DNA from: Bacteroidales bacterium
GTDB taxonomy: Bacteria; Bacteroidota; Bacteroidia; Bacteroidales; B18-G4
Assembly: GCA_032250805.1 (NCBI GenBank)
Contig: JAVVEM010000008.1
Location: forward strand, 25,774-89,773
DNA: 64,000 nucleotides
Reading direction: 5' to 3'
Shown: piece by piece, positions 1 to 14,295 of the stretch
How the letters are laid out: each line of letters opens with the position of its first letter
Numbering within the stretch: the first letter of the stretch is position 1
Program-made: the position numbers and the translations under genes
Notes under the pieces: model-generated
What the model was told of the DNA's origin: nothing
Seen by the model: the letters and a program-made list of their open reading frames with translations, nothing else
Database searches by the model: none

Positions 1-1190
1 GGCTCCACAGCCCTTTCATACATGCCGTTTGTCCAGGCAATGGTCATGCCGTAATTGGTAACGGGCACGCCGGCCTCAATGGCTTCCTGCAGCCTGTTGC
101 TCAATTGTTTTTTTGTGATCATACAGCCACCGCATTGCACAACCAGCGAATATTCGCCAATGGGCCGCGGAAATTCTTCGAGCCCGGCAACAATGTCGAA
201 CATCAGATCTTTACCGGTATGTTTACGCAGCCAGCCGGGGATCTTGTAACGACCGATGTCGTCGCAGTTTACCTGGTGTGTGCATGATTCAAGGATCAGC
301 ACCCGGTCATTGTCTTTGAGCTTGCCAATGGCTGGTGTGCCTTCAAGATAGGCCCTGAAATTTCCCTTGCGGCTTGCCAGCAGCACACTGAAGCCTGTTA
401 AGGGAATATCTTCTGGCACGACCCTGTTCATTTTGTCAAACACCTGGCTGTCGGTAATGGCCAGCTTCGGCTTTATTTTTGTTTTTTTCAGAAATGCTTC
501 AACTTCGGTTTCTTTCAATACAATATTTATACAGTTATTATCAAGCACGTCGCGGATGGCCTGAACCTGAGGCAGGATCATTCTTCCTTCGGGTGCTTCC
601 AGGTCGATCGGCGTGATGAGCATCACAATTTCGCCGGGCTCAAGCAGTGTTCCCAGCAGTGAAGTGCTTGTCCAGGATGATTTTGGCATGAGCCGGATAA
701 TGGCATCCAGCACTTTGTCGATGGCATCGGGCGGGCGGCTGCTGAATTCAATGATCTCGGAACTGAATTTCTCTTTAACCGTTTTGGTCGTAGTGTCAAG
801 AAGCCGTGATTCGTCAGATTTGTTATGAATAAATAGGTAGGGGATGTTATAACGCCTGAATTGTGCGATCAGGCTTTCTTCATATTTCCCTATGGTATTT
901 CGGGCGATGATGATAATGGCCAGGTCGATCGATTTGATCACCTGCATGCTTTTACTCACCCTGAGCGTTCCCAGTTCGCCACGGTCGTCAATACCGGCAG
1001 TATCGATCATTACGGCGGGGCCGATGCCAAAGATCTCGACCGATTTTTTTACCGGATCGGTGGTTGTTCCTGCTTTGCCGGATACAATGGCGATGTCCTG
1101 GCCTGCGATGGCATTGATAAATGAGCTTTTTCCGTTGTTGCGCCGCCCAAAGATGCCAATATGCGGTTTATGTTCTCTCCCTTTTTTCAT
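1..1190 (-). CDS. hydF: [FeFe]-hydrogenase maturation GTPase HydF (C-terminus cut by window edge)
   Basis: Absent from the ORF track because it runs off the window. My translation of the minus strand from ATG (1190-1188) reads MKKGREHKPHIGIFGRRNNGKSSFINAIAG... It has GTPase G1 (GRRNNGKS), G3 (DTAG) and G4 (NKSD) motifs, plus C-terminal CTH...QCGGC cluster-binding cysteines. The start overlaps the hydE stop (ATGA at 1187-1190). Confidence 0.85.
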   Translation of the reverse strand, partial: MKKGREHKPHIGIFGRRNNGKSSFINAIAGQDIAIVSGKAGTTTDPVKKSVEIFGIGPAVMIDTAGIDDRGELGTLRVSKSMQVIKSIDLAIIIIARNTIGKYEESLIAQFRRYNIPYLFIHNKSDESRLLDTTTKTVKEKFSSEIIEFSSRPPDAIDKVLDAIIRLMPKSSWTSTSLLGTLLEPGEIVMLITPIDLEAPEGRMILPQVQAIRDVLDNNCINIVLKETEVEAFLKKTKIKPKLAITDSQVFDKMNRVVPEDIPLTGFSVLLASRKGNFRAYLEGTPAIGKLKDNDRVLILESCTHQVNCDDIGRYKIPGWLRKHTGKDLMFDIVAGLEEFPRPIGEYSLVVQCGGCMITKKQLSNRLQEAIEAGVPVTNYGMTIAWTNGMYERAVE

Positions 1191-2290
1191 TGTTCCGGTT
1201 TTGTGTTTTCAATGCGGTTATGGTAGTGTTTTGAGTCGCCCCATAAATGATAGTTGACACGCATTCCCATACCGGCAATATTTTCTTCCAGGCCGGCCAG
1301 GCTTGCTTCTGCCATATCAGTAAATATGGGCTTGCCTTCGTACAGCATGTAATTGCATGCCTGCGCCGGTGGGGTGATGTTTGGCATGAATATGTTGGCG
1401 CCGGAGGCGATGGCTTTGATCCTTCCGGCCGGATCGAGGGTGTTCATGGCCGTTGACGCGGCCATGTTGATGTCTTTCATCATGATCCGCATCAGTGCTA
1501 TCATCTTCAGGCTGAGATCAATCCGCTCTTCATCCGAAGGGATGTCGGCACATCTGCGGGCCAGAGGGGTGTCGGCATGTGGAATATAGGGGCCCATTCC
1601 CACCATATCGATATTGAAATCACGCATAAAGATCAGGTCGTCGGCAAGATGTCCGGTGTGCTGGAAAGGCAAGCCTATCATCACTCCCGTACCTGTTTGG
1701 TATCCCAGCCGCTGAAGTGTCCTGAGTGCTTCCACACGCTTGTCGAAGCTGTGAAATTCGTCTCTGGGGTGCAGCTTCCCGTAAAGGCTCCGGCTGCTGG
1801 TTTCAATCCTTAAAAGGTAGCGATGGGCCCCGGCTTCATACCATTCGCGGTATATGTCTTCGGATTGTTCTCCGCAACTAAGGGTGATGCCCAGTTCATG
1901 ATTGCTCAGTGATTTTATTTCCCTGAGCAGCTCAGTGATGCTGCTGGTAAATGTCCGGTCGCTGCGCTCGCCGCTCTGGATCACCACTGAGCCGAAGCCT
2001 TTTTTCCAGGCATATTCTGCCGCATGAAGCACTTCCCGGGTATTGAGCAGGTATCGTCCTGACTTATTGTTCCCGCTCCTGATGCCACAATAGTAACAGT
2101 TTTTCCGGCAGATATTCGATAATTCGATCAATCCCCTGAGGCTTACCTGCCTGCCCACATATTTTGCGGCAACCCTTCTTGCACGGGCAAAAAGCAATTG
2201 CCGCTCATCTTCATCCTGTGTTTGCAATATGTAGATGAGGTCCTCCCGGCTCAGGCTTTCTTTGCGGAGTATGCTTTCTGTTGTTTTCAT
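1187..2290 (-). CDS. hydE: [FeFe]-hydrogenase H-cluster radical SAM maturase HydE
   Basis: 367 aa with radical-SAM motif CRKNCYYCGIR and biotin-synthase-like architecture. It sits between hydG and hydF. Confidence 0.9.
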   Translation of the reverse strand: MKTTESILRKESLSREDLIYILQTQDEDERQLLFARARRVAAKYVGRQVSLRGLIELSNICRKNCYYCGIRSGNNKSGRYLLNTREVLHAAEYAWKKGFGSVVIQSGERSDRTFTSSITELLREIKSLSNHELGITLSCGEQSEDIYREWYEAGAHRYLLRIETSSRSLYGKLHPRDEFHSFDKRVEALRTLQRLGYQTGTGVMIGLPFQHTGHLADDLIFMRDFNIDMVGMGPYIPHADTPLARRCADIPSDEERIDLSLKMIALMRIMMKDINMAASTAMNTLDPAGRIKAIASGANIFMPNITPPAQACNYMLYEGKPIFTDMAEASLAGLEENIAGMGMRVNYHLWGDSKHYHNRIENTKPEQ

Positions 2291-2310
2291 CGGTTTTGGC
2301 GTTTTTCCGG

Positions 2311-3750
2311 TCAGAAATAGAGGTCGCGTTTTCCTGCTTTAACTAATTCTATCCGCTTGATCAATTCATTCTTAAGCTGGGGGGCGATTCCTCCATTCAG
2401 GTTATTATTGATGATGGCCCAGCCTTTTTCGGCCTGCTTCGCTGTGGCATAATCCTCGAGATATTCGGCCAGGGTAAGGATGGCATTGGGTGTGCAGAAC
2501 TTCTTTATGAAACCCGGCACCGAAAATTCCATAAAATGTTCGCCGGTTCTTCCTTTCCGGTAGCATGCCGTACAAAATGAGGGCAGGTACTCATGTTCAA
2601 GCAACTCGTCGATGACCTGGGCGAGGCTGCGTGTGTCGTGGATCAGGAATTGTTCTTTATTCAGATCCTGTATGGCTTGCAATTCCTTTTCACCGGCATA
2701 GGCGCCCATTTCCAGTTTTGTGCCGGCATCGATCTGCGAAACCCCGAACGCAAGCACTTCCCTGCGGATATGCTCAGGCTCGCGGGCAGTGAGGATCATC
2801 CCCGTATAGGGCACGGCCAGCCGGAGAATGGCCACCAGCTTAACAAAGTCCTTATCGCTCACGCCATATTTAGTGTCGATCTCATATTCGGCGGCATCCT
2901 GCAAGCGGGGAAAGGAAATGGTGTGCGGGCCAACCTGGTAGCATGCTTCGAGATGGTTGGTATGCCGCACCAGCGCCATCACCTCAAATTTCCAGTCATA
3001 CAGGCCAAAGAGCGCACCGATCCCCACATCGTCGAGGCCGGCTTCCTGTGCACGGTCGAGGGCCGTTAAGCGGTAATTGTAATCTTTTTTCTTTCCCCCC
3101 CGGTGATACCAACTGTATGCTTCGGGGTGGTAAGTTTCCTGAAAAACCTGGTATGTGCCGATGCCGGCTTCTTTTACAATCCTGAAGCCTTCAATATCGA
3201 GCGGGGCGGCATTGATGTTCACTCTCCTGATCTCGCCCCGGCCTTTGCGCACATCATACACTGTCTTTACCGAATCGGCAATAAATTCGGGTGTATACTC
3301 CGGGTGCTCGCCATATACCAGGATGAGCCTTTTTTGCCCTTCCTGCTCCAGGGCTTCAACATTTTTTATTAATTCGTCGCGGCCCAGAGTTTTTCTTATG
3401 GCATCCTTGTTCGATGCCTTAAATCCGCAGTATTTGCAGTTGTTAATGCAATAATTTCCTACATATAAGGGGGCAAACAACACAATTCTGTTTCCATATA
3501 CTTTTTGTTTCAGCCTGCGTGCGCCTTCCTTTATTTCTTCGACGAGGGCGGGGTCGTTGGTGTTCAGGAGCACGGCCACCTCCTGCATGGAGAGACGCTG
3601 TTTGTTCAGCGACTTTGCTATGATCTTTTTCACTGCAGAGCCATCTGTTACGGCTGTGTCGAGCATATCCCGGATCTCACCGGCATCGATGAAATTTTTC
3701 ATGGGCTCGTCCTTGATCGCGTATTGTTCGGGTGTGAACTTCATGGCCAT
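2311..3750 (-). CDS. hydG: [FeFe]-hydrogenase H-cluster radical SAM maturase HydG (ThiH-like tyrosine lyase)
   Basis: 479 aa with radical-SAM motif CINNCKYCGF. A C-terminal auxiliary cluster motif (CTACYRKGRTGEHF...C) is typical of HydG. Sits in hydGEF context. Confidence 0.9.
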   Translation of the reverse strand: MAMKFTPEQYAIKDEPMKNFIDAGEIRDMLDTAVTDGSAVKKIIAKSLNKQRLSMQEVAVLLNTNDPALVEEIKEGARRLKQKVYGNRIVLFAPLYVGNYCINNCKYCGFKASNKDAIRKTLGRDELIKNVEALEQEGQKRLILVYGEHPEYTPEFIADSVKTVYDVRKGRGEIRRVNINAAPLDIEGFRIVKEAGIGTYQVFQETYHPEAYSWYHRGGKKKDYNYRLTALDRAQEAGLDDVGIGALFGLYDWKFEVMALVRHTNHLEACYQVGPHTISFPRLQDAAEYEIDTKYGVSDKDFVKLVAILRLAVPYTGMILTAREPEHIRREVLAFGVSQIDAGTKLEMGAYAGEKELQAIQDLNKEQFLIHDTRSLAQVIDELLEHEYLPSFCTACYRKGRTGEHFMEFSVPGFIKKFCTPNAILTLAEYLEDYATAKQAEKGWAIINNNLNGGIAPQLKNELIKRIELVKAGKRDLYF

Positions 3751-3767
3751 GTGTATTGTGAGTTAAA

Positions 3768-4916
3768 CTATACTGTTATCGTTGTATTGATCTTTGCAGG
3801 CTTAAGCCTCACGGTAAACGTGCTTCCCTTTTCCGGTTCACTCGCCACAGTGATGGTTCCGTCGTAGTTGTTATTTACAAGCTTCTTTACGATAGAGAGC
3901 CCAAGGCCGCTGCCGCTGATGTTTCTTGTTTTATTGTTTTTTATCCTCACAAATTCCTGGAAAAGCATCGAAAGTTCTTCATCGTTCATGCCGATACCCG
4001 TATCCTGAACCGTAATGATGAGCTGTTCTTTGTGTTGTTTAATGCTGATGTTCACCTCGCCATCCTCTTTGTTGTATTTCACGGCATTGGATATGAGGTT
4101 GTTGAAAATGATCTCAAGCTCGTTGGCATCGGCATTAAAATTCAGTTCCTTCGGGGCATGAAGATAAATTTTTACATTTTGCTGTATAGCCATGGGCTCG
4201 ATGGTATCCATCGCCATTCTTGCAACGGCAACAACATCCGACTCCTTTACCTGCCGTATCTTTTTTCCGGATTCAAGCTTGGTGAGGTCGAGCATGTCCA
4301 TGATCAGGTTGCGCATACCTTTAATGCGTTCAATCGAACGGTCGATCATGGTTTCATAATCTTCAATGTTATCGCCCGCCTGTTTGTCTTTCATAATGTT
4401 GAGGTATCCTTCAACTGCATTGATGGGCGATTTTAGTTCGTGCGAAAGTACCGACAGGAACTGGAAGCGCACCTGTTTGCCGGCTTCGTCGAGCTGCCTG
4501 GTCATCCTTTTCAGGAAGAGGTGCTTGGTAATATTGTCGATCGATGCCCTTAATTCGTCAGGAGTAAAGGGCTTGGGAACGAAATTGTATGCACCGTTGT
4601 TGGTGGCTTTAACTGCCAGGTCGAGCGAAGCGTATGAGGTGATCATCATTACGATGGCATCGATATTGTTTTTCCTGATATATTCAAGCACTTCAATGCC
4701 ATCCATGCCGGGCAGCTTATTGTCGAGCAGGACAATATCCGTTTCGCCGCGGTTTAATACCTCAATGGCGTATTCTCCTGTTTCGGCTTCTGTCAGGGCG
4801 AAATCAAAATCCTCCTCCATGAAGGGGTATCCAACAGAATAGTTCCTTAAAATGCGGGAGATGCCTGACCTGATCCCCGGTTCATCATCTACAACAAGTA
4901 TATTGAGCGTAGCCAT
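3768..4916 (-). CDS. Hybrid receiver-histidine kinase (REC-HisKA-HATPase, no sensory domain)
   Basis: N-terminal receiver (ILVVDDEPGIR...VLLDNKLPGMDG...KP), H-box SHELKSPINAVEGY, and a C-terminal ATPase with GSGLGLSIVK. Confidence 0.85.
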   Translation of the reverse strand: MATLNILVVDDEPGIRSGISRILRNYSVGYPFMEEDFDFALTEAETGEYAIEVLNRGETDIVLLDNKLPGMDGIEVLEYIRKNNIDAIVMMITSYASLDLAVKATNNGAYNFVPKPFTPDELRASIDNITKHLFLKRMTRQLDEAGKQVRFQFLSVLSHELKSPINAVEGYLNIMKDKQAGDNIEDYETMIDRSIERIKGMRNLIMDMLDLTKLESGKKIRQVKESDVVAVARMAMDTIEPMAIQQNVKIYLHAPKELNFNADANELEIIFNNLISNAVKYNKEDGEVNISIKQHKEQLIITVQDTGIGMNDEELSMLFQEFVRIKNNKTRNISGSGLGLSIVKKLVNNNYDGTITVASEPEKGSTFTVRLKPAKINTTITV

Positions 4917-4927
4917 AGTGGTTTGAT

Positions 4928-5323
4928 TTAAAGTTTTAACAATTTGTTGATCTCGCGTTCAAGCTGATCTTTTCTTATGCCTTTTTCAAGGAACTTGTCG
5001 GCGTGGATCCACTTTTTATCTGCTTCAGTGTCGAGACTGAAATTCAGACCTGTTTCGGCGGTGACCGCCGAGGCAATGATGATGGGCAGGTGCGGGTATT
5101 TTTTCTTCATTTTGTAACTGAGGATAAATCCGCTGTCTTTTTTTTCCATCATCAGGTCGATAATGGCCAGGTCGGGGGCTGAGTCTGCAATGGATTCTTC
5201 GGCCTCTTTTTCGCCCTGTGCCGTTCTTACTTCAAAGCCCATACTTTTAAGCTGTAGCTCGAGCTGGGCAAGATAATCCATGTCGTCGTCAACGATGAGG
5301 ATGTGTTTTTTTGTGTTGTTCAT
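4928..5323 (-). CDS. Stand-alone response-regulator receiver protein (CheY-like, no output domain)
   Basis: 131 aa with ILIVDDDMDY...LAIIDLMME...IIIASAV...FLEKG. This is a receiver fold only. Confidence 0.8.
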   Translation of the reverse strand: MNNTKKHILIVDDDMDYLAQLELQLKSMGFEVRTAQGEKEAEESIADSAPDLAIIDLMMEKKDSGFILSYKMKKKYPHLPIIIASAVTAETGLNFSLDTEADKKWIHADKFLEKGIRKDQLEREINKLLKL

Positions 5324-5341: not shown

Positions 5342-7327
5342 TTATTTGCCTCTCGGCAACGTAATTGTAAATGTTGTTCCTGTTTGACCTTTAGCGGGGT
5401 CGGCATTCGAGTCGACCGAGATCTTTCCTTTATGCATTTTTACGATCCCGTAAACCAGGGGCAGTCCCAGGCCGGTACCTTTACCAACTTCCTTGGTGGT
5501 AAAGAAGGGTGTAAACAGCTTGTCCATGTGCTTTTCGGGGATGCCATGCCCGGTATCGCTGATCATGATCTTCACACTGTGATCGTTGCCTTCCAGCCTG
5601 ATGCCCAGTTCGCCGCCTTCAGGCATGGCTTCAACGGCATTTTTTTCAAGATTGGTAAGCACCTGCATCATTTGTTCCCGGTCGATACTTGCCGTCAAAT
5701 GATCCGTTTCTACCCTGAAGCTGACCTTCACATTCCTGTCGTGTATGATGCTGCTGATGCTGTCGCTCAAAAATTCTTTCAGATCGGTTTCCTGAAGTCT
5801 TACCTGGTTTTTCCGGGCAAAGTTCAGCAGTCCTCCAACAATATGCTTGCAGCGCTCCGTTTGTTCTACAATGAGCTCGAGGTCTTTATAAACGGGATTT
5901 TCTTTTGATGTTTCATCTTTCAGGATGTTGCTGTACATGGTGATCACCCCGAGCGGGTTGTTCAATTCGTGGGCAATGCCTGCCGATAGTTGGCCCATGT
6001 GGGCAAGCTTTTCAGAGTGTCTGAGTGCTTGCTGGGTATTGGCGAGCTCTTCATTGCTCAGGTTAAGCTCTGCTACCGAGCGGTGAAGCTTTTCAATGGT
6101 AAAGGGCAGGCACATTTCGTCTTCGGCGAGTCCTTCGAAGATGGCAATGGCATGTTCGCGGCATGTTTCGTAACCGCATGCCCCACAGTTCAGGTGGTCA
6201 TTATCATTATATTTTCCCATCGAATGGAGGATGGCCCTGATTTTATCCTTATCAGGTTCCGCTACGCGGCGGTCTTCGGCAATAAATTCCCTCGACAGAT
6301 CCAGTTTATCGTACTTCATCATGTTTTTCTTCCATTCATCCCCGTCGAGCTGTTCAAGCTTTATTCTGGCGTAATTGCTCACGCGCAGCGTTCGTTCAAA
6401 TTTTTTGCCTCCACACGATAATCCCGGGCCCATAATGCATCCGTCGCAGCACAACAGCTCGAGGTGCTGATCTCTGATCACGCCGTTTTCAAATTCTTTG
6501 ATGGCTTCCCTGAAGTTTTCCTTTCCTTCGGCCACCAGCACATTGCCATGGCAAATGTCGTCATCGTGGTCGGTGGTCTGCAACAGACCCCTGCTAACAG
6601 GGAAGATGGCCCCTTTGCCGGAAGTGGGAGCATCAAACCCGCCATTTCCGTCCTTTTGTTCGTTAATGCCGGCTTGCTCCAGCATTCCTCGCAGCTCCCT
6701 GAAGGTAATGGCTTCGTCAATTTCATTGCTTTCGGCTTTCTTGGCAATGCACGGACCTACAAAAACGATCTTCACGTCCTTTCCGTATGTTTTCTTTATC
6801 ATCCTGGCAGTTGCCGTCATGGGCGAAACGATGGGCGCCAGCGATTTTGTGAGTTCCGGATGGTAATACTCAATATACCTGACGATTGCCGGGCAGTCGG
6901 AAGAGATGTAATTCTTTCCGTGGCGGTTTTTCAACAGCTTGCTGTACTCCTTTGCTACCAGGTCGGCACCAAACGAAACTTCAATGACTTTATCAAAGCC
7001 CAGGGCGCGTATCATGCCCGCAATGGCCGCAGGGTTGCTTAATTCTTTGAATTCGGCCGGGAAACTGGGAGCCAAAATGGCAAAAACCAAGTGATCTTTA
7101 TTCAACAATTCATTAACCACATCACTGGTTTCCAGAAACACCTTGGCTCCCTGGTTGCATACTTTTATGCAGTTTCCACAACCGATGCAACGTTCGCTGA
7201 CTACCTCAGCCTGTCCGTTCATGATCCTGATTGCTTTTGCAGGGCACTCGCGCACACAGGTAAAACACATCCTGCACCTGTCCTTTACGGTGAATACCAA
7301 CTGTCTGTGTTTTATATCTGTGTTCAT
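5342..7327 (-). CDS. Ferredoxin + [FeFe]-hydrogenase H-cluster-like domain + CxxCxxxC FeS domain fused to a histidine kinase (putative sensory hydrogenase-kinase)
   Basis: aa 18-57 carry two CxxCxxCxxxCP ferredoxin motifs. H-domain motifs are SSDCPAIV (6881-6904), GPCIAKKAE (6731-6757) and ELLCCDGCIMGPG (6422-6460), which align with TSCCPAW / MPCTAKKFE / EVMACPGGCIAGGG of the adjacent HydA. NCGACGYETC is an RnfB-type FeS domain. H-box is AHELNNPLG. The ATPase has GTGLGLPLV. Confidence 0.8.
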   Translation of the reverse strand: MNTDIKHRQLVFTVKDRCRMCFTCVRECPAKAIRIMNGQAEVVSERCIGCGNCIKVCNQGAKVFLETSDVVNELLNKDHLVFAILAPSFPAEFKELSNPAAIAGMIRALGFDKVIEVSFGADLVAKEYSKLLKNRHGKNYISSDCPAIVRYIEYYHPELTKSLAPIVSPMTATARMIKKTYGKDVKIVFVGPCIAKKAESNEIDEAITFRELRGMLEQAGINEQKDGNGGFDAPTSGKGAIFPVSRGLLQTTDHDDDICHGNVLVAEGKENFREAIKEFENGVIRDQHLELLCCDGCIMGPGLSCGGKKFERTLRVSNYARIKLEQLDGDEWKKNMMKYDKLDLSREFIAEDRRVAEPDKDKIRAILHSMGKYNDNDHLNCGACGYETCREHAIAIFEGLAEDEMCLPFTIEKLHRSVAELNLSNEELANTQQALRHSEKLAHMGQLSAGIAHELNNPLGVITMYSNILKDETSKENPVYKDLELIVEQTERCKHIVGGLLNFARKNQVRLQETDLKEFLSDSISSIIHDRNVKVSFRVETDHLTASIDREQMMQVLTNLEKNAVEAMPEGGELGIRLEGNDHSVKIMISDTGHGIPEKHMDKLFTPFFTTKEVGKGTGLGLPLVYGIVKMHKGKISVDSNADPAKGQTGTTFTITLPRGK

Positions 7328-7361: not shown

Positions 7362-9086
7362 TTACTTCATTACTTCTCTTTCTGTATAATTTGTGTGCAG
7401 CAACTCATGGCTTTTATGCCCGCAGGGTTCTCCAAGGAAAGTGTTGTATATCTCAATGATATCAGGGTTTTTATGCGAAACTTTTATGCTTTCGCCTTCA
7501 TCGATATCATAGAGGCTTTTCATCCTGGCAAGGATATCTTCCTTTTCGGCACCTATTTTTTGTCCTCCGCCGGCGATACATCCTCCCGGGCAGGCCATCA
7601 CTTCAATAAAATGGATGTCGTTTCTTCCGGCCCTGATCTCGTCGAGGAGTATCCTTGCATTATTCAGTCCGCTAACCACTGCGATGCCAAGCTCCAGGTC
7701 GCCGATCTTTATGCTTGTTTCTTTTCTTCCGTTCATCCCCCTGATCTGCGGAATCCGGAATGCCGTGAGCTCTTTTCCTGTGATCTTATTGTAGGCAGTG
7801 CGGATGGCTGCTTCCATAACTCCGCCGGAGGCTCCAAACAGCTTTCCTGCCGAACTGCGGAATCCCATGGGAGAGTCGGCCAGCTCTGGTTCAAGCTTGT
7901 GGATGTCGACACCGTGCATGCGAATAAAATCAGCCAGCTCACGGGTGGTAAGCACGGCATCAACATCGCTAATGCCGTGGCGGGTCATCTCATTGCGCTG
8001 TGCTTCGAATTTTTTCGCCGTACACGGCATAATTGATACGGAGTAAATATTCTCGGGTTTAATGTTTTCCTTTTCGGCATAATAGCTTTTAATCACTGCG
8101 CCGAGCATTTGTTGCGGTGATTTGCAGCTTGAAATATTCGGGAGGAAATCCGCGGCAAACTCCTCTGCATATTTTATCCAGGCAGGGCAGCAACTGGTGA
8201 TCATTGGCAGTGTGCCTCCGTTTGATACGCGCTGGATCAGCTCCGCCGATTCTTCTATAATGGTGAGGTCGGCCGAAAATGTTGTGTCGAACACCGTTTT
8301 GAATCCTATCTTTCGCAGTGCGGCATTCAAAATGCCGTTGATGTCTTTTCCGGGCTCCATGCCGAAGGCTTCTGCCAACGATACCGATATGGCAGGGGCA
8401 TACTGAACGACAAGTGTTTTGGAAGGATCGTTCATGGCCTCTGTGATCTCGGCGAAATGATTCTTCTCGGTGAGTGCGCCTGTAGGGCAAACCATGATGC
8501 ATTGTCCGCAATTCACACAACTGGAAGTGTTCAGTCCGCTGTTGAAAGCTGTTCCGATCACGGTATTGCTTCCGCGTCTGATAAAGTCGATGGCCGAAAC
8601 CCCCATCACCTCTTCACACACCCTTATGCATCTTCCGCATAGAATACATTTGTCGGGGTCGCGCACAATGCTGGGGCTCGACTGGTCGAGGTTATAATTG
8701 TTTTTCACGCCGTGGATGCGGCGCTCGGTAACGTTCAGTTCTTTCGAAAGCCCCTGCAGCTCACAGTTTCCGTTTCTTACACAATACAGGCAATCGTCGG
8801 GATGGTTCGAAAGCAGCAGCTCAACAATGGTTTTGCGTGATTCGATCACCTTATTGGAGTGCGTGTTTATTTTCATTCCATCGGCTACCGGAAACGAGCA
8901 GGAAGAAACCAGCTTGCCGCTGTCTTCAAGTTCTACCACACACATCCTGCACGATCCGCTGGGAAACATATCTTTCATATGGCAGAGGGTGGGTACTTTT
9001 ACGCCATTTCTTTCAAGCACATCCAGAATGGTTTCACCGTTTTCGGCGGCCACTTTTTTCTTGTTTATTACGATTTCAAAGCTCAT
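7362..9086 (-). CDS. hydA: [FeFe]-hydrogenase catalytic subunit HydA (HndD-like, NAD(P)/ferredoxin-linked type)
   Basis: 574 aa with an N-terminal plant-type 2Fe-2S domain, HPDDCLYCVRNGNCELQ, and two 4Fe-4S ferredoxin motifs. H-cluster motifs are TSCCPAW, MPCTAKKFE and EVMACPGGCIAGGGQ. A C-terminal small-subunit-like tail is present. Confidence 0.92.
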   Translation of the reverse strand: MSFEIVINKKKVAAENGETILDVLERNGVKVPTLCHMKDMFPSGSCRMCVVELEDSGKLVSSCSFPVADGMKINTHSNKVIESRKTIVELLLSNHPDDCLYCVRNGNCELQGLSKELNVTERRIHGVKNNYNLDQSSPSIVRDPDKCILCGRCIRVCEEVMGVSAIDFIRRGSNTVIGTAFNSGLNTSSCVNCGQCIMVCPTGALTEKNHFAEITEAMNDPSKTLVVQYAPAISVSLAEAFGMEPGKDINGILNAALRKIGFKTVFDTTFSADLTIIEESAELIQRVSNGGTLPMITSCCPAWIKYAEEFAADFLPNISSCKSPQQMLGAVIKSYYAEKENIKPENIYSVSIMPCTAKKFEAQRNEMTRHGISDVDAVLTTRELADFIRMHGVDIHKLEPELADSPMGFRSSAGKLFGASGGVMEAAIRTAYNKITGKELTAFRIPQIRGMNGRKETSIKIGDLELGIAVVSGLNNARILLDEIRAGRNDIHFIEVMACPGGCIAGGGQKIGAEKEDILARMKSLYDIDEGESIKVSHKNPDIIEIYNTFLGEPCGHKSHELLHTNYTEREVMK

Positions 9087-9106: not shown

Positions 9107-11056
9107 TTAATTGATCATTACAGCATCAAACTTGCATACTTCTTCACAGGTGCCGCAGCCAATACATTTATTGTCGACAATAAAGTGGGGGCTTTTTCTT
9201 GTCCCGATGATGGCTGCGGTAGGGCATTTCTTCGCGCAGAGCGTACAGCCTGTACATTTATCCACATCGATGGAGAAGGTCCTGAGCTCAGTACAAACGC
9301 CCGCGGGGCATTTTCTTTCGAAGATGTGTTCTTCGTATTCGTTCCTGAACCAGCGCAGGGTGCTCAGCACTGGATTTGGTGCTGTTTGCCCCAGTCCGCA
9401 CAGCGAAGTGTCTTTGATCACCTGTCCGAGTTTTTCGAGTTGCATAACGCCTTTAAAGCGCTCCAGGGCATCGGCATTGTTGCCATTGGGTTTATGGCTG
9501 ATGCTTTCGAGAATTTCAAGCATCCTTTTGGTACCCTCCCGGCAGGGGATGCACTTGCCGCAGCTTTCGCGCTGAATAAAGTCCATAAAGAACTTCGCCA
9601 CATCCACCATGCAGGTATCTTCATCCATGACCACCAGGCCTCCGCTGCCCATCATGGCACCGGCACTGATCAGCGATTCATAATCGATCTGGATGTCGAG
9701 GTTGGCTTCGGTGATACATCCCCCCGAAGGACCCCCGATCTGTACGGATTTAAATTTCTTGCCGTTGGGTATTCCTCCGGCAATGGTAAAGATGATCTCT
9801 CTTACGGTGGTTCCCATGGGGATCTCAACGAGGCCCGTAAGGGCTACTTTTCCGGAGAGCGCAAATACTTTCGTACCCTTGCTGTTTTCTGTACCGATGG
9901 CGGCAAACTTCTCTTCACCCATCTCCGCGATCGAAGGTATGTTTGAGAGCGTTTCAACATTATTAATAATTGTAGGCTTGCCAAAGAGTCCTTTTACGGC
10001 AGGAAAGGGAGGCCTGGGCCTGGGCATGCCCCGCTTGCCTTCAATGCTGTGGATAAGGGCTGTTTCTTCACCGCATACAAAAGCGCCCGCACCCATTTTA
10101 ATGATCAGCTCCAGACTGAAACCGCTCTGATATATGTTTGCACCGAGAAGTCCGAAATCGCGGGCCTGTTGAATGGCTTCTTTCAGCCTGGCAATGGCCA
10201 GTGGGTATTCGGCACGGATATACACATAGGCTTTTGATGCTCCGATAGCGTATGCTGCAATGGCCATGCCTTCGATGAGCCTGTGCGGATCACCCTCGAT
10301 CACAGCCCTGTCCATGAATGCGCCGGGATCACCCTCATCGGCATTGCAGATCAGGTATTTCTGGCTGGCTTTTTCCCTGTATGCAAATCCCCATTTTCTT
10401 CCTGTGGGAAAGCCCCCGCCACCGCGACCGCGCAAGCCGCTCTTTTCTACCATTTCGCAGACTTCCAGAGGATGCTTTTGTGCAATGATATTTAAAAAAT
10501 TACGATAGCCTCCATGAGCAATATATTCTTCGATCGAGGCCGGGTTGATGAGGCCGCAGTTTTTAAGTACAAGCCTGCTCTGAGGCGCAAAGAATGGGTG
10601 TTCGTCAATGTAGGGCACCTGATCATATGCTTCCAGCGCCAGGCTTCTGAACTGGCCTATGGCGGCTTCCTTATCGGTTTCTCCTGAAAAGGTTTGCTCC
10701 AGCAGTGATCCGGCCTGGCCGGCAGTAACATTTTTATAGGATATCCGGTTTTTCCCCGGAAGCTGTATGTCGACGATGGGCTCTGCCGAACACAGGCCGA
10801 TACATCCTACGCGGATCACTTCCGCATCGATATTGTTTTTGCTTGTCCAGCTTTCGATGGCCGCAATGGTCTTGTCCGCTCCGGCACCCAGACCGCAGGT
10901 TCCGGCTCCTACATAAATACGTGGTTTGGACGTATCTTCACGACGTAGCATTCTTAAACTGTTCCTGTCGGCAGGGGAGAGGTCTTCCGTGTCAACACGC
11001 TGATCCAGTAAGGTCCTTAACACTTCTGCATATTGGTATTTTTTGGTATTGCTCAT
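9107..11056 (-). CDS. hydB: NuoF-like flavoprotein subunit HydB of a multimeric [FeFe]-hydrogenase
   Basis: 649 aa with an N-terminal thioredoxin-like 2Fe-2S domain, FMN/NADH motif GRGGGGFPTG, and ESCGKCIPCREG. The C-terminus has 2x[4Fe-4S] (CTGCTLCAKKCP, CIGCGTCEEVC). The start overlaps the hydC stop (ATGA at 11053-11056). Confidence 0.9.
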   Translation of the reverse strand: MSNTKKYQYAEVLRTLLDQRVDTEDLSPADRNSLRMLRREDTSKPRIYVGAGTCGLGAGADKTIAAIESWTSKNNIDAEVIRVGCIGLCSAEPIVDIQLPGKNRISYKNVTAGQAGSLLEQTFSGETDKEAAIGQFRSLALEAYDQVPYIDEHPFFAPQSRLVLKNCGLINPASIEEYIAHGGYRNFLNIIAQKHPLEVCEMVEKSGLRGRGGGGFPTGRKWGFAYREKASQKYLICNADEGDPGAFMDRAVIEGDPHRLIEGMAIAAYAIGASKAYVYIRAEYPLAIARLKEAIQQARDFGLLGANIYQSGFSLELIIKMGAGAFVCGEETALIHSIEGKRGMPRPRPPFPAVKGLFGKPTIINNVETLSNIPSIAEMGEEKFAAIGTENSKGTKVFALSGKVALTGLVEIPMGTTVREIIFTIAGGIPNGKKFKSVQIGGPSGGCITEANLDIQIDYESLISAGAMMGSGGLVVMDEDTCMVDVAKFFMDFIQRESCGKCIPCREGTKRMLEILESISHKPNGNNADALERFKGVMQLEKLGQVIKDTSLCGLGQTAPNPVLSTLRWFRNEYEEHIFERKCPAGVCTELRTFSIDVDKCTGCTLCAKKCPTAAIIGTRKSPHFIVDNKCIGCGTCEEVCKFDAVMIN

Positions 11057-11523
11057 GACTGATCTTCAGATTTTCTGTAGTTATCAATGATCTGGTCGAT
11101 GCCGGCAGCATCTACCCTGGCATAAAATTCGCCATTAATACATATCACAGGAGCCAGGCCGCAAGCCCCGATGCAAGCCACAACTTCAAGGCTGAAAAGG
11201 CCGTCTCTACTGGTCTGACCCGCTTTGATCCTTAAATTGTCCTGGATTTTTTCCAGTACCGTTGCCGAGCCCAGCACATGGCATGCCGTACCCCGGCATA
11301 CCTGGATGTGGTATTTCCCGAGTGGTTCGAACCTGAACTGGTTGTAAAAGGTCGCAACACCAAAGATTTTGCTGGCAGGCATCCGTAAATGCCTGCCAAC
11401 TTTTACCACGGAACTTTCCGACAGGTAGCCCTCCTTTTCCTGTATGGCCTGCAGTATGGGGATCAACTGATCCTTTCCTGCGCCGGCATTTGCCTCGAGA
11501 ATGATATCTGTTGCTTCTTTCAT
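11053..11523 (-). CDS. hydC: NuoE-like 2Fe-2S subunit HydC of a multimeric [FeFe]-hydrogenase
   Basis: 156 aa with CRGTACHVLG...VACIGACGLAPV, the thioredoxin-like [2Fe-2S] pattern of NuoE/HndA. Confidence 0.9.
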   Translation of the reverse strand: MKEATDIILEANAGAGKDQLIPILQAIQEKEGYLSESSVVKVGRHLRMPASKIFGVATFYNQFRFEPLGKYHIQVCRGTACHVLGSATVLEKIQDNLRIKAGQTSRDGLFSLEVVACIGACGLAPVICINGEFYARVDAAGIDQIIDNYRKSEDQS

Positions 11524-11559: not shown

Positions 11560-12081
11560 TTAATGGGCTGTAGTTGCCTTCGCTTTTTTATCGAGCAGTA
11601 ATTGTATCTCTGCAAGCAACTTTTCTGCTTCAACCGGTTTCCTTAAAAATCCGTCTACTTTCAGCCAAACCGAAGGGCCTTCCTCGCTTTTGTAGTCAAC
11701 CCCTGCATTGCCACTTACTACATCTTTAATAAGCAATACATCAAGTTCGCGATAGTTGGGGTCCTGGCGGAATTCCCTGGCCATTTCCTGAACACTCGGT
11801 TTGGTGGTTGTAAGAATATCGATAGAAGAAAGCATCATCACCGGCATTTTATTAAAATCAGGGTTTTCGCTAAGTTCCTTTGCCATTTCAAAGCCTTCAA
11901 AGTGAGTGGTCATCATCACATCGAGAATGGCGAGGTCGGGTTTTTCGGTCCAGGCTTTTTTAATGCCTTCGATCTTGTCGTTGGCCGAAACTACTTCGTA
12001 TCCGTTATTTGTAAGGATAGCTTTTACGACGGTGATCACATCAATGTCGTCGTCTACGATCAGAATTTTCTTTGTTTCCAT
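11560..12081 (-). CDS. Stand-alone receiver protein with a large insertion between beta4 and beta5
   Basis: 173 aa with ILIVDDDIDV...LAILDVMM...MMLSS...FLRKP. The Ser85/86 to Lys148 spacing is about 62 residues, against about 22 in CheY. It is the first gene of the hydrogenase block. Confidence 0.7.
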   Translation of the reverse strand: METKKILIVDDDIDVITVVKAILTNNGYEVVSANDKIEGIKKAWTEKPDLAILDVMMTTHFEGFEMAKELSENPDFNKMPVMMLSSIDILTTTKPSVQEMAREFRQDPNYRELDVLLIKDVVSGNAGVDYKSEEGPSVWLKVDGFLRKPVEAEKLLAEIQLLLDKKAKATTAH

Positions 12082-12306: not shown

Positions 12307-12966
12307 TTATATTGTAACGAGCTTATTTTTAATGGCATACGAGAGCAGGCTGATCGTACTTTTGCAGTTTGTTTTGGATAGGAGGTTGGATTTATGCCCA
12401 ACCACGGTGCGTTCGCTGATAAAGAGTTCTTCTGCCATCTCGCGGTTGTTGAGCCCGTCGCAAATCAACTGCAGTACCTCCTGTTCGCGTTTGGTAAATT
12501 GCAGCTCGCTGCCTTCTTCTTTTTTTTGTTCGGAGAACTTTTTGCCGAAGTACGACCAGAGTTCGGGCGAGTAATAGGTGTTTCCTGCGGCAATGGATTG
12601 AAGCGCCTGGTCGAGGAGTTCCCTGGTAATGTTCTTCAGCAGAAATCCATGTACACCGATATCCATCATCTTGTCGATATATTCCTCATCATCAAACATG
12701 GTAAGGATCACGATCTTCAGGTCGGGGAATTCCCTGATGGCGATCTCGCTGGCTTCAATGCCATTCATAATGGGCATCTGCAGGTCGAGCAGGACCAGGT
12801 CGGCAGGTTTTTCCTTCTGGAGTTCGATAAACTCCTTTCCGTTGGAAGCTTCGCCCGTAACAGTGGCATATTTCAGCCTGTTAACGACCATTTTTAGTCC
12901 ATTCCTGAAAAATTCGTGATCGTCAACGATGATAATTTTGAGCGTATTCTCCGTGTCCTTTATCAT
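12307..12966 (-). CDS. NarL/LuxR-family response regulator (REC + LuxR HTH)
   Basis: 219 aa with IIIVDDHEFF...LVLLDLQMP, and a C-terminal FTKREQEVLQLICDGLNNREMAEELFISERTVVGHKSNLLSK. Confidence 0.9.
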   Translation of the reverse strand: MIKDTENTLKIIIVDDHEFFRNGLKMVVNRLKYATVTGEASNGKEFIELQKEKPADLVLLDLQMPIMNGIEASEIAIREFPDLKIVILTMFDDEEYIDKMMDIGVHGFLLKNITRELLDQALQSIAAGNTYYSPELWSYFGKKFSEQKKEEGSELQFTKREQEVLQLICDGLNNREMAEELFISERTVVGHKSNLLSKTNCKSTISLLSYAIKNKLVTI

Positions 12967-12981
12967 GTGGCAAAGATAAGA

Positions 12982-14295
12982 CTATTTTGCATATCTGCCG
13001 CTTAGTTTTACCTCAACAACGACAAGGGTACCGGCTTCTTTCATGGAATGGATCTTATAGGTGCCATGGATTGATTCGAGGCGGCTGATAATATTTTTCA
13101 GTCCCATGCCAGAGTTCTCAGTATTCAGCACCTTATCAAGGTCGAAACCTATGCCGTCGTCCATGTATGTGAGCTGCAGAATGTCATCGAACTTTTCCAG
13201 GTAGATCTCTATCTTTCCTGCCCCGGAATGCTTTATGCTGTTATTCAGCAGTTCGGTAACCACCCTGTAAAGCACAAGTTCAATGGTTTGGTCGAAACGT
13301 TCCTGTATCGATGCTTCGTAAAGGATGTTGATCTTCTGGCTCAGGTTAATTTTCTTGCAGAACGATTCAACGGCTTTGATCAGCCCAAAGTCGATGATCA
13401 CCCGTGGCGTAAGCAGGTTGGCGATGGTACGGGTTGAGGTGATGGCCTCGTCGAGGATCTCATTCGTTCTCTTGAGAAATTCTGTCCTTTCCTCCATACT
13501 CAGGTCATCCGACTCCAGCTCGTTCACATATAATTTAATTGTCGACATGAGTGGCCCCAGATCGTCGTGTATCTCCCGGGCAATGCGTTCACGCTCTTTT
13601 TCCTCGGCATTGATCACTGCTCTCAGGATCTTGCGTTCCAACTGTTTTCGTTCGGTAATATCCCTGGCGATCGACAATATGGCCTTTTGGCCCTGATAGT
13701 CGATGAGGCGGCTTTTAACTTCAAGCGAAAGGATGCGTCCGTGCCTGGTACGATGTTCGGTTTGGTAGGTATGCTGACCACGTGCCAGGATGAGCTTCAG
13801 GTTTTCATCAACGGCTTCGGTGTATTTCTGTGTTTTGATATCCCTGAAATTCATCCGCTTCATCTCTTCAGCGCTGTAACCCATTGAGTCGATGGCAACC
13901 TGATTAATTTCCAGTAAATTGCCTTCTGTGTCAGCCAGGAATATTTCGTCGCTGCTGTGGTGAAACAAGGTTGAAAAGCGTTTTTCCGATTCTTCGCGCT
14001 CGCGCTCGGTTTTATGGAGGGCGTGGAGAATCCTTGCAATGCCGATCACGGCGATGGCCATAATAATGGATGTGGCAATTCCAAGCCATTCGTCGAGCAG
14101 GATCAGCTCAGGCGAGAGTTCTTTTCCCAAATGTTGCCACAGGTCGACCACCCTGCGAACACCCATGAATATCAGGGCCACGGCAATGAGCATCCACGCG
14201 ACCTTGCTCAGGGCATAGCGCAACAGCCAAAGAGCACCTGCAAAGGCAATAAGCTGCAGCAGAATGGAAACAATAAGTGCATTTGTCGTAAGCAT
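12982..14295 (-). CDS. Membrane sensor histidine kinase (TM-PAS-HisKA_3-HATPase, NarX/DegS class)
   Basis: Hydrophobic N-terminal helices, a PAS-like segment, H-box REIHDDLGP, and an ATPase with MDDGIGF...GMGLKNI. Confidence 0.85.
   Translation of the reverse strand: MLTTNALIVSILLQLIAFAGALWLLRYALSKVAWMLIAVALIFMGVRRVVDLWQHLGKELSPELILLDEWLGIATSIIMAIAVIGIARILHALHKTEREREESEKRFSTLFHHSSDEIFLADTEGNLLEINQVAIDSMGYSAEEMKRMNFRDIKTQKYTEAVDENLKLILARGQHTYQTEHRTRHGRILSLEVKSRLIDYQGQKAILSIARDITERKQLERKILRAVINAEEKERERIAREIHDDLGPLMSTIKLYVNELESDDLSMEERTEFLKRTNEILDEAITSTRTIANLLTPRVIIDFGLIKAVESFCKKINLSQKINILYEASIQERFDQTIELVLYRVVTELLNNSIKHSGAGKIEIYLEKFDDILQLTYMDDGIGFDLDKVLNTENSGMGLKNIISRLESIHGTYKIHSMKEAGTLVVVEVKLSGRYAK

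Follow-up and report, generated by a model that had tools for sequence, protein, structure and literature searches.

Of the sensory [FeFe]-hydrogenases, the putative detectors and transmitters of an H2 signal, only two have been characterised in detail, TmHydS of Thermotoga maritima and TamHydS of Thermoanaerobacter mathranii. Both bind a functional H-cluster, both have Ala at the position occupied in the catalytic Group A enzymes by the proton-relay Cys, and neither is fused to an output domain. The subject of the present analysis is hydS-HK, a gene for a putative H2-sensing histidine kinase with Asp (D144) at the relay position, located in a 64,000-nucleotide stretch of DNA of a Bacteroidales bacterium (GenBank assembly GCA_032250805.1, contig JAVVEM010000008.1, positions 25,774 to 89,773 of the forward strand; the whole stretch is called the window below). 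Sequence comparison makes it probable that the protein is an H2-sensing kinase of the Group C HydS type in which D144 serves as a functional proximal proton acceptor.

The effects of Asp at the relay position have been described for engineered enzymes. Site-saturation of C298 in CaHydA showed Asp to be the only one of 19 replacements that keeps activity, at half the kcat and with a pH optimum of 7 in place of 8 (PMC3485046); this is the active Cys-to-Asp variant of a clostridial enzyme to which the initial annotation of the window had referred. In CpI C299D the carboxylate forms 2.7 Å hydrogen bonds to the amine of the azadithiolate (adt) ligand and to a conserved water; the variant retains 30-80% of H2 release and does not accumulate the Hhyd state (PMC6226526). 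Cys-to-Asp variants are biased toward H2 evolution, and their Hox state stays populated under reducing conditions (PMC9563086).

In the two sensors studied the relay position and those of Met353 and Met497 of Group A enzymes are indeed altered, as the initial annotation had stated: to A131, G177 and S267 in TmHydS, and to Ala137, Ser (Met353) and Leu (Met497) in TamHydS. The further statement that such substitutions slow catalysis named the right positions, but the relation is not simply causal, since restoring the Group A residues in TmHydS gave no gain in activity: A131C lowered it, G177M had no effect on the activity per site, and with S267M more than 90% was lost. S267, a second-sphere residue, acts via redox tuning and not via proton transfer.

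Domain organisation and class of the sensor kinase

The gene and the domains of its product are as follows.

5342..7327, minus strand: hydS-HK, putative H2-sensing histidine kinase; an open reading frame of 661 amino acids with two [4Fe-4S] clusters, H-domain, C-terminal [4Fe-4S] cluster, HisKA and HATPase_c (Pfam)
7145..7288, minus strand: N-terminal ferredoxin-like domain for two [4Fe-4S] clusters, residues 14-61; matches to Fer4_10, Fer4_9 and Fer4_7, Cys invariant in the alignment of the Asp-bearing clade described below
6425..7087, minus strand: H-domain Fe_hyd_lg_C (PF02906), residues 81-301, containing motifs L1, L2 and L3; E = 3.5e-47, aligns to CpI and to HydA of HydABC enzymes
6104..6193, minus strand: C-terminal cluster C381-x2-C384-x4-C389-x16-C406 (PF04060 'FeS', residues 379-408); Pfam match, Cys invariant in the same clade
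5807..5998, minus strand: HisKA dimerisation and phospho-acceptor domain, residues 444-507; PF00512, E = 3.7e-13
5969..5971, minus strand: codon of His453 in the H-box AHELNNPL; H453 to P458 invariant in the same clade, aligned to ZraS
5351..5683, minus strand: HATPase_c catalytic ATP-binding domain, residues 549-659; PF02518, E = 4e-25

The Pfam score of the H-domain excludes a chance match. The fold agrees with the profile: in the AF2 model (mean predicted local distance difference test value, pLDDT, 73; H-domain mostly 80-95) the top Foldseek matches are HydABC HydA, CbA5H and CpI, with E of about 1e-16 to 1e-18 and the C299D variant among them; no Group C or Group D structure is present in the PDB. 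The PF04060 stretch is an exact match to Cx2Cx4Cx16C, reported as a motif of the sensory hydrogenases of Groups C and D (PMC8163306), and this hallmark of the sensors is thus present. HisKA and HATPase_c come directly after the C-terminal cluster, no PAS domain being detected in the protein by Pfam; their best PDB match is ZraS (E = 1e-32), and the presence of an H-box His within HisKA together with HATPase_c is that of a HisKA-type sensor histidine kinase. The arrangement of two N-terminal [4Fe-4S] clusters, H-domain and C-terminal cluster is shared by the nearest 270 relatives. The protein is 100% identical to a generically named NCBI protein of a Bacteroidales metagenome-assembled genome (MAG; P0001), and no NCBIfam model reaches its cut-off for it. 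A scan of the genome collection with the sensor protein as the sole query returned four close Bacteroidales loci and one spurious ferredoxin match.

The PF02906 profile, the fold match and the four H-cluster Cys in L1, L2 and L3 identify an H-domain. It is not one of Group A, as it has Asp144, Gly191 and Leu292, Ala164 at the position of S319 and Lys130 at that of E282, while R286 falls in a gap of the phmmer alignment to CpI and only E127 may match E279; the NCBIfam Group A model scores 103 bits on the sensor against a cut-off of 406. Nor does it belong with the TamHydS-type sensors of Group D, since it has Gly at 191 and L248 at the presumed equivalent of TamHydS E252 (CpI V423). The gene adjoins a Group A hydrogenase operon, as a Group C sensor should. 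Judged by these features the protein is a sensor of the Group C HydS type in its structural definition, except that a kinase takes the place of the PAS domain; the assignment of kinase-fused proteins to C1 or C3 is inconsistent in the literature.

The H-cluster motifs and the register of Asp144

The positions that carry the argument, together with the catalytic hydrogenase encoded next to the sensor, are listed here.

6896..6898, minus strand: codon GAC of D144, aligned with the proton-relay Cys of Group A enzymes (CpI C299)
6881..6904, minus strand: L1, SSDCPAIV, residues 142-149; C145 is the ligand of [4Fe-4S]H (CpI C300), xSDCP in 120/120 close homologues
6731..6757, minus strand: L2, GPCIAKKAE, residues 191-199; G191 for Met353, C193 a ligand, K196 and E199 corresponding to CpI K358 and E361
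6437..6460, minus strand: L3, ELLCCDGC, residues 290-297; L292 for Met497, C293 an extra Cys, C294 and C297 ligands in CxxC spacing
7362..9086, minus strand: hydA, catalytic Group A [FeFe]-hydrogenase with canonical motifs TSCCP, MPC and EVMACPGGC; its stop lies 34 nt upstream of hydS

In the open reading frame L1, L2, L3 and the codon of D144 read just as they had been reported. HydA has TSCCPAWI, MPCTAKKFE and EVMACPGGC at the corresponding places, and BLASTP of the sensor against it (E = 8e-19) pairs ISSDCPAIVRY with ITSCCPAWIKY, so that Asp stands opposite the relay Cys. The same register is obtained with phmmer against all PDB sequences, where issdcp aligns with TSCCP of HydA of TmHydABC, of T. 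kivui HydA, of A. woodii HydA and of CpI. The top-scoring CpI entry in the PDB is 6GLZ, identified as the engineered C299D variant (PMC10407848), in which the motif of the sensor is aligned to ftsDcp. In MAFFT alignments of 150 to 380 homologues D144 keeps its register, and C145, C193, C294 and C297, equivalent to CpI C300, C355, C499 and C503, are near-invariant, being kept in at least 146 of 150 relatives. The initial annotation had allowed that a wider alignment might place the Asp elsewhere, or that the substitutions might turn out to mark a paralogous family of non-hydrogenases; the Asp is at the relay position, and the family consists of genuine H-cluster-type hydrogenases.

The shorter L3 with an additional Cys, noted earlier, also stands: relatives read D-I-L-F-C-E-G-C, with Cys at +4 and +7 from Glu/Asp, and two members of the close clade read ELLACEGC, which makes C293 the supernumerary Cys. 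C293 (6449-6451, minus strand), directly before the ligand C294 in LCC, is found in 118/120 members of the Asp-bearing clade and in its Thr-bearing sister clade; elsewhere the position is Phe, Ala or Tyr.

Ordinary and unusual substitutions in the family

The family was surveyed in 150 aligned representatives of 50%-identity clusters, 33-63% identical to residues 1-420 of the query. The Met353 position is Gly in 141 of them and the Met497 position Leu in 100. The L3 spacing is CxxC, as in the window protein, in 82 (median length about 675 aa), which make up the branch with kinase, sigma-54 or GGDEF outputs, and the canonical CxxxC in 64, which have about 574 aa and are of the PAS type, as is TmHydS. 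By sequence comparison the generic pocket of a Group C sensor thus includes Gly191, Leu292 and the short L3, each ordinary on its own. All three substitutions that had been held to distinguish the sensor from HydA are real, but those in L2 and L3, and the short L3 itself, are routine throughout Group C.

The relay position is another matter. It is Ala in 49 representatives, Pro in 24, Thr in 20, Ser in 20, Cys in 15, Asn in 7, His in 5 and Asp in 3; two of the three Asp representatives are fragments from the query's own lineage, and the one unrelated is P0243, of the PAS type. The Asp relay, singled out in the initial annotation, is therefore rare (3/150), but it is not special to this gene, being fixed in a whole clade of Bacteroidota and having a second origin elsewhere.

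Among the members of the CxxC branch, 74 were scanned together with Pfam, and 37 have HisKA/HATPase_c, nine a sigma-54 activator and four a GGDEF fusion; a separate Pfam scan of eight longer CxxC representatives found HATPase_c in four (three with HisKA) and a sigma-54 activator in four. In P0149, P0173, P0180, P0199 and others the sensory hydrogenase module is fused to a sigma-54 AAA+ domain with a helix-turn-helix, or to GGDEF; such proteins would be one-component H2-responsive regulators of transcription or of cyclic di-GMP.

The Bacteroidota clade with Asp at the relay position

Each of the 120 closest homologues (61-100% identical; records of Bacteroidales, Tenuifilaceae and Saprospiraceae) reads xSDCP. 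Their H-domains diverge to 54% identity, a distance similar to that of the nearest clusters without Asp (50-55%), which read ATTCP, ASTCP or ATSCP. A neighbour-joining tree from which column 144 was left out recovers all Asp sequences (31/31) as one monophyletic group, with a Thr clade as sister. In seven orthologous genes the four-fold degenerate sites are only 21-51% identical, and codon 144 is always GAC or GAT. Only two of 420 positions, D144 and H415, reach a frequency of 97% or more in the Asp clade and stay at 5% or less elsewhere.

6083..6085, minus strand: H415, the second clade-specific fixed residue; His in 120/120 of the Asp clade, and Arg, Glu or Lys elsewhere

H415 lies in the helix between C406, the last Cys of the C-terminal cluster, and H453 of the H-box, and may be relevant to signal transmission.

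The Asp could in principle be a functionally neutral marker of the lineage that chance had fixed at a site under no constraint in sensory hydrogenases, and the relay position does belong to the most variable positions of the family (2.79 bits), with Ala, Pro, Thr, Ser, Cys, Asn, His and Asp all represented. This explanation is highly improbable. The invariance of the Asp in 120/120 sequences with H-domains as divergent as 54%, the near-saturated synonymous sites, the use of both codons, and the small number of comparable positions (only 15 of the 221 that are as variable as 144 in the wider family are invariant in the Asp clade) argue against neutral drift; moreover, a second clade independently acquired an acidic residue and retained it, and Asp is the one residue known to replace the relay Cys functionally. 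On this comparative evidence Asp144 is a selected, lineage-specific replacement of Thr, a clade-defining and recurrent natural variant. No description of a natural Asp at the relay position was found in the literature searched, which did not extend to the tabulations of natural L1 variants where one would most likely be listed.

The second clade, to which P0243 led, comprises 18 clusters of PAS-type sensors (P0243 and P0271-P0287), 16 with Asp and two with Glu at the relay position. Most of its members keep Met at the Met497 position, and the named ones belong to MAGs of Cloacimonetes and Delongbacteria. This clade, too, is monophyletic; its sisters have Ala or Ser, and the node that unites it with the first clade takes in 286 of the 290 tips of the neighbour-joining tree, so that the acidic relay residue has a second, independent origin there. 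Around the second clade the relay position is Cys in 39 clusters, Ser in 31 and Ala in 23, so that the statement that Group C lacks the relay Cys and has 'mostly Ala' (PMC10407848) is a simplification. The epithet 'relay-less' does not fit the whole of Group C: many of its lineages have Cys, Ser, Thr, Asp or Glu there, and others have Ala or Pro.

Surroundings of Asp144 and its possible role

Within the Asp clade the positions A86-P87-S88, S168-P169, K196 and E199, aligned to the conserved H-cluster-pocket positions of CpI, are invariant; by this correspondence they would hold the diiron subcluster. The four H-cluster Cys, these pocket residues, the complete kinase and the presence of the maturase genes hydG and hydE in the operon are all retained, which supports the reading of the protein as a sensory [FeFe]-hydrogenase fused to a kinase. 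It is improbable that the diiron subcluster is no longer bound and that the protein, though of hydrogenase descent, is a redox or Fe-S sensor kinase that reports the state of ferredoxin or NADH and not H2. Such a loss would fit the Hydrogenedentota Group C1 proteins, in which the H-cluster motifs are hard to recognise (PMC11406978), as well as the lack of a kinase-fused HydS among the characterised sensors, and the maturase genes would be needed for HydA in any case; it is difficult to reconcile with the invariance of the cluster Cys and of the presumed pocket residues, and with the functional H-cluster of the homologous TmHydS and TamHydS.

The nearest candidate partner of D144 in proton transfer is the following residue.

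6947..6949, minus strand: E127, aligned to CpI E278/E279, the second step of the Group A pathway, with an ambiguity of one residue

Its position is Glu in 110/120 (92%) of the Asp clade versus 26-57% in other sets of Group C. Among 258 relatives no clear association was found between the relay residue and the equivalent of E279, and the share that has Glu was 0.57 for Cys, 0.54 for Ser, 0.56 for Asp and 0.39 for Ala.

R246 (6590-6592, minus strand) aligns to CpI G421; the position is Gly in 216 of 258 other relatives, and both the Asp clade and the Thr clade next to it have an invariant Arg. The Arg thus predates the Asp, and the idea that the two substitutions are coupled was rejected on that ground.

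In the favoured reading, H2 would bind to the H-cluster of the sensor and be split heterolytically; D144 would form a hydrogen bond to the azadithiolate amine and take up the proton, with E127 as a possible next station. A conserved route to the solvent beyond E127 is lacking, which would be acceptable for a sensor with no need of fast turnover. The Asp would thereby give the Bacteroidota sensors a proximal proton acceptor that TmHydS and TamHydS lack.

Several points weigh against this reading. The binding of H2, its signalling and the part played by D144 are deduced from the sequence. The rest of the Group A proton pathway is missing and no onward route is conserved, so the Asp could be no more than a local proton acceptor, or else the start of some other route. 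E127 does not clearly track the relay residue across the wider family, and R246 might instead be the residue that pairs with D144. Ala and Pro are tolerated at the relay position across Group C, which means that sensing as such needs no relay residue there. Finally, H2 does not reduce the C-terminal cluster in TamHydS (PMC13104023), which weakens a redox step of signalling through that cluster.

Some of the same facts would suit a role of D144 mainly as an electrostatic or hydrogen-bonding tuner of the potentials and states of the H-cluster, which would set the H2 threshold or the pH dependence of the sensor, perhaps together with R246. The engineered Cys-to-Asp variants keep high Hox under reduction, with a bias to H2 evolution and an acid shift of the pH optimum (PMC9563086, PMC3485046), and they do not accumulate Hhyd; S267 of TmHydS works by redox tuning; no onward proton pathway is conserved, and the lineage has a fixed R246 as well. 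The one structure that has Asp in the relay site speaks for the other role, since there the carboxylate bridges the adt nitrogen and a water and supports turnover. That tuning is the main function of D144 is rather unlikely; the two roles are, however, compatible and not exclusive.

Returning to the Asp as proton acceptor, a bolder proposal is that the carboxylate-relay sensors, with Asp or occasionally Glu and built at least twice, form a distinct functional class, in which a proximal acceptor without a distal pathway would act as a 'single-proton trap' coupling H2 heterolysis to signalling. This is put forward tentatively, as a possibility somewhat short of an even chance. If true, the pH dependence, the H2 threshold and the H-cluster states of carboxylate-type sensors should differ from those of the Ala-type sensors studied so far. 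The Asp clade is a natural counterpart, in a sensor scaffold, of the most informative laboratory variant, Cys to Asp, and because the kinase, with autophosphorylation as its readout, is part of the sensor polypeptide itself, the sensing of H2, the handling of protons and the output of the signal could be measured side by side.

The hyd operon and the presumed output of the signal

The sensor gene is part of an operon on the minus strand with the order hydC-hydB-hydA-hydS-REC-REC/HK-hydG-hydE (REC, receiver; HK, histidine kinase), the intergenic gaps from hydA through hydG being 11-34 nt. Apart from hydA and hydS, it comprises the following genes.

11053..11523, minus strand: hydC, NuoE-like [2Fe-2S] subunit (domain and NCBIfam scans)
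9107..11056, minus strand: hydB, NuoF-like flavoprotein subunit (domain and NCBIfam scans)
4928..5323, minus strand: stand-alone receiver of 131 aa, 18 nt downstream of hydS; same position at loci L006 and L007
3768..4916, minus strand: REC-HisKA-HATPase_c hybrid kinase (Pfam); synteny kept at L006 and L007
2311..3750, minus strand: hydG, H-cluster maturase (TIGR03955, 494.6 bits versus a cut-off of 312)
1187..2290, minus strand: hydE, H-cluster maturase (TIGR03956, 326 bits versus a cut-off of 254.6)

HydA scores 814 bits with NCBIfam NF040763 ('NADH-dependent [FeFe] hydrogenase, group A6'; cut-off 765). The order hydC-hydB-hydA-hydS is common to the window and to L006 (Tenuifilaceae bacterium CYCD, AP027304) and L007, which are on long genome contigs (3.9 and 4.9 Mb).

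The sensor would be co-transcribed with the trimeric HydABC and presumably reports on its activity or expression. A redox or conformational change at the H-cluster would pass through the C-terminal [4Fe-4S] module and the connecting helix, with H415, to the kinase; given the behaviour of the TamHydS cluster, it is doubtful that redox steps alone carry the signal through the C-terminal cluster, and a conformational route is no less likely. The phosphorylation of His453 would be altered, and then that of the adjacent receiver and of the REC-kinase hybrid. The receiver encoded at 4928..5323 is likely the phosphoacceptor of the sensor kinase, and the REC-HisKA-HATPase_c hybrid likely the second step of a phosphorelay. 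No DNA-binding output regulator was identified inside the hyd operon. Upstream of hydC lie a gene for a 173-aa protein with only a partial receiver domain (11560-12081, minus strand) and one for a PAS-HisKA_3 kinase with a LuxR-type response regulator (12307-14295, minus strand).

The related loci have further genes. At L006 13612-14238 and L007 13598-14230 a gene for a Rex-like redox-sensing repressor (Put_DNA-bind_N and CoA_binding) is located between the REC-kinase hybrid and hydG; it is absent from this place in the window, where hydG comes directly after the hybrid. The hydABC locus of L006 also has a second, divergently transcribed sensory hydrogenase with L1 reading ISSMCPVV, that is, with Met at the relay position. 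It is found in the region of 3358-5244 (minus strand) and 2157-3338 (minus strand), and a SpoIIE/PP2C phosphatase gene comes after it; one hydrogenase is there flanked by two different sensors. In the window tblastn detected only one sensor, with no second.

Comparison with known systems

TmHydS (Group C, M2f) resembles the window protein in its two N-terminal [4Fe-4S] clusters, H-domain and C-terminal Cx2Cx4Cx16C cluster, in Gly for Met353, in the loss of the relay Cys and in the missing Group A proton pathway. It differs in having Ala at the relay position, Ser at Met497, CxxxC in L3 and a PAS domain without a fused kinase, where the window protein has Asp, Leu and CxxC with an extra Cys, lacks PAS and is fused directly to HisKA/HATPase_c. 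TamHydS (Group D, M2e) shares Leu for Met497, the lack of PAS, the C-terminal cluster and the location beside a bifurcating HydABC; unlike the window protein it has Ala137 as relay residue, Ser for Met353 and a proton path via E252 and E289, and its histidine-kinase-like ATPase is encoded by a flanking gene and is not fused. The window protein has Gly, not Ser/Thr, at the Met353 position and Leu (L248) at the presumed position of E252; it thus agrees with TmHydS at Met353 and with TamHydS at Met497.

CaHydA C298D, CpI C299D (6GLZ) and CrHydA1 C169D have Asp at the same place beside the H-cluster, but in a Group A scaffold with an intact distal pathway, Met353 and Met497, whereas the Asp of the window is natural and set in a Gly/Leu pocket without that pathway. 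The HydDB Group C1, 'histidine kinase-linked (putative)', agrees in being a putative H2 sensor with two-component coupling that adjoins a Group A bifurcating hydrogenase; according to one study the C1 reference is without a fused HATPase_c, and some kinase-fused proteins classify as C3. The logic of a low-activity hydrogenase module that controls a histidine kinase regulating hydrogenase genes is also that of HoxBC with the kinase HoxJ ([NiFe], Group 2b), although that system has an unrelated metal site and fold, and its kinase forms a subunit of its own, with a PAS domain.

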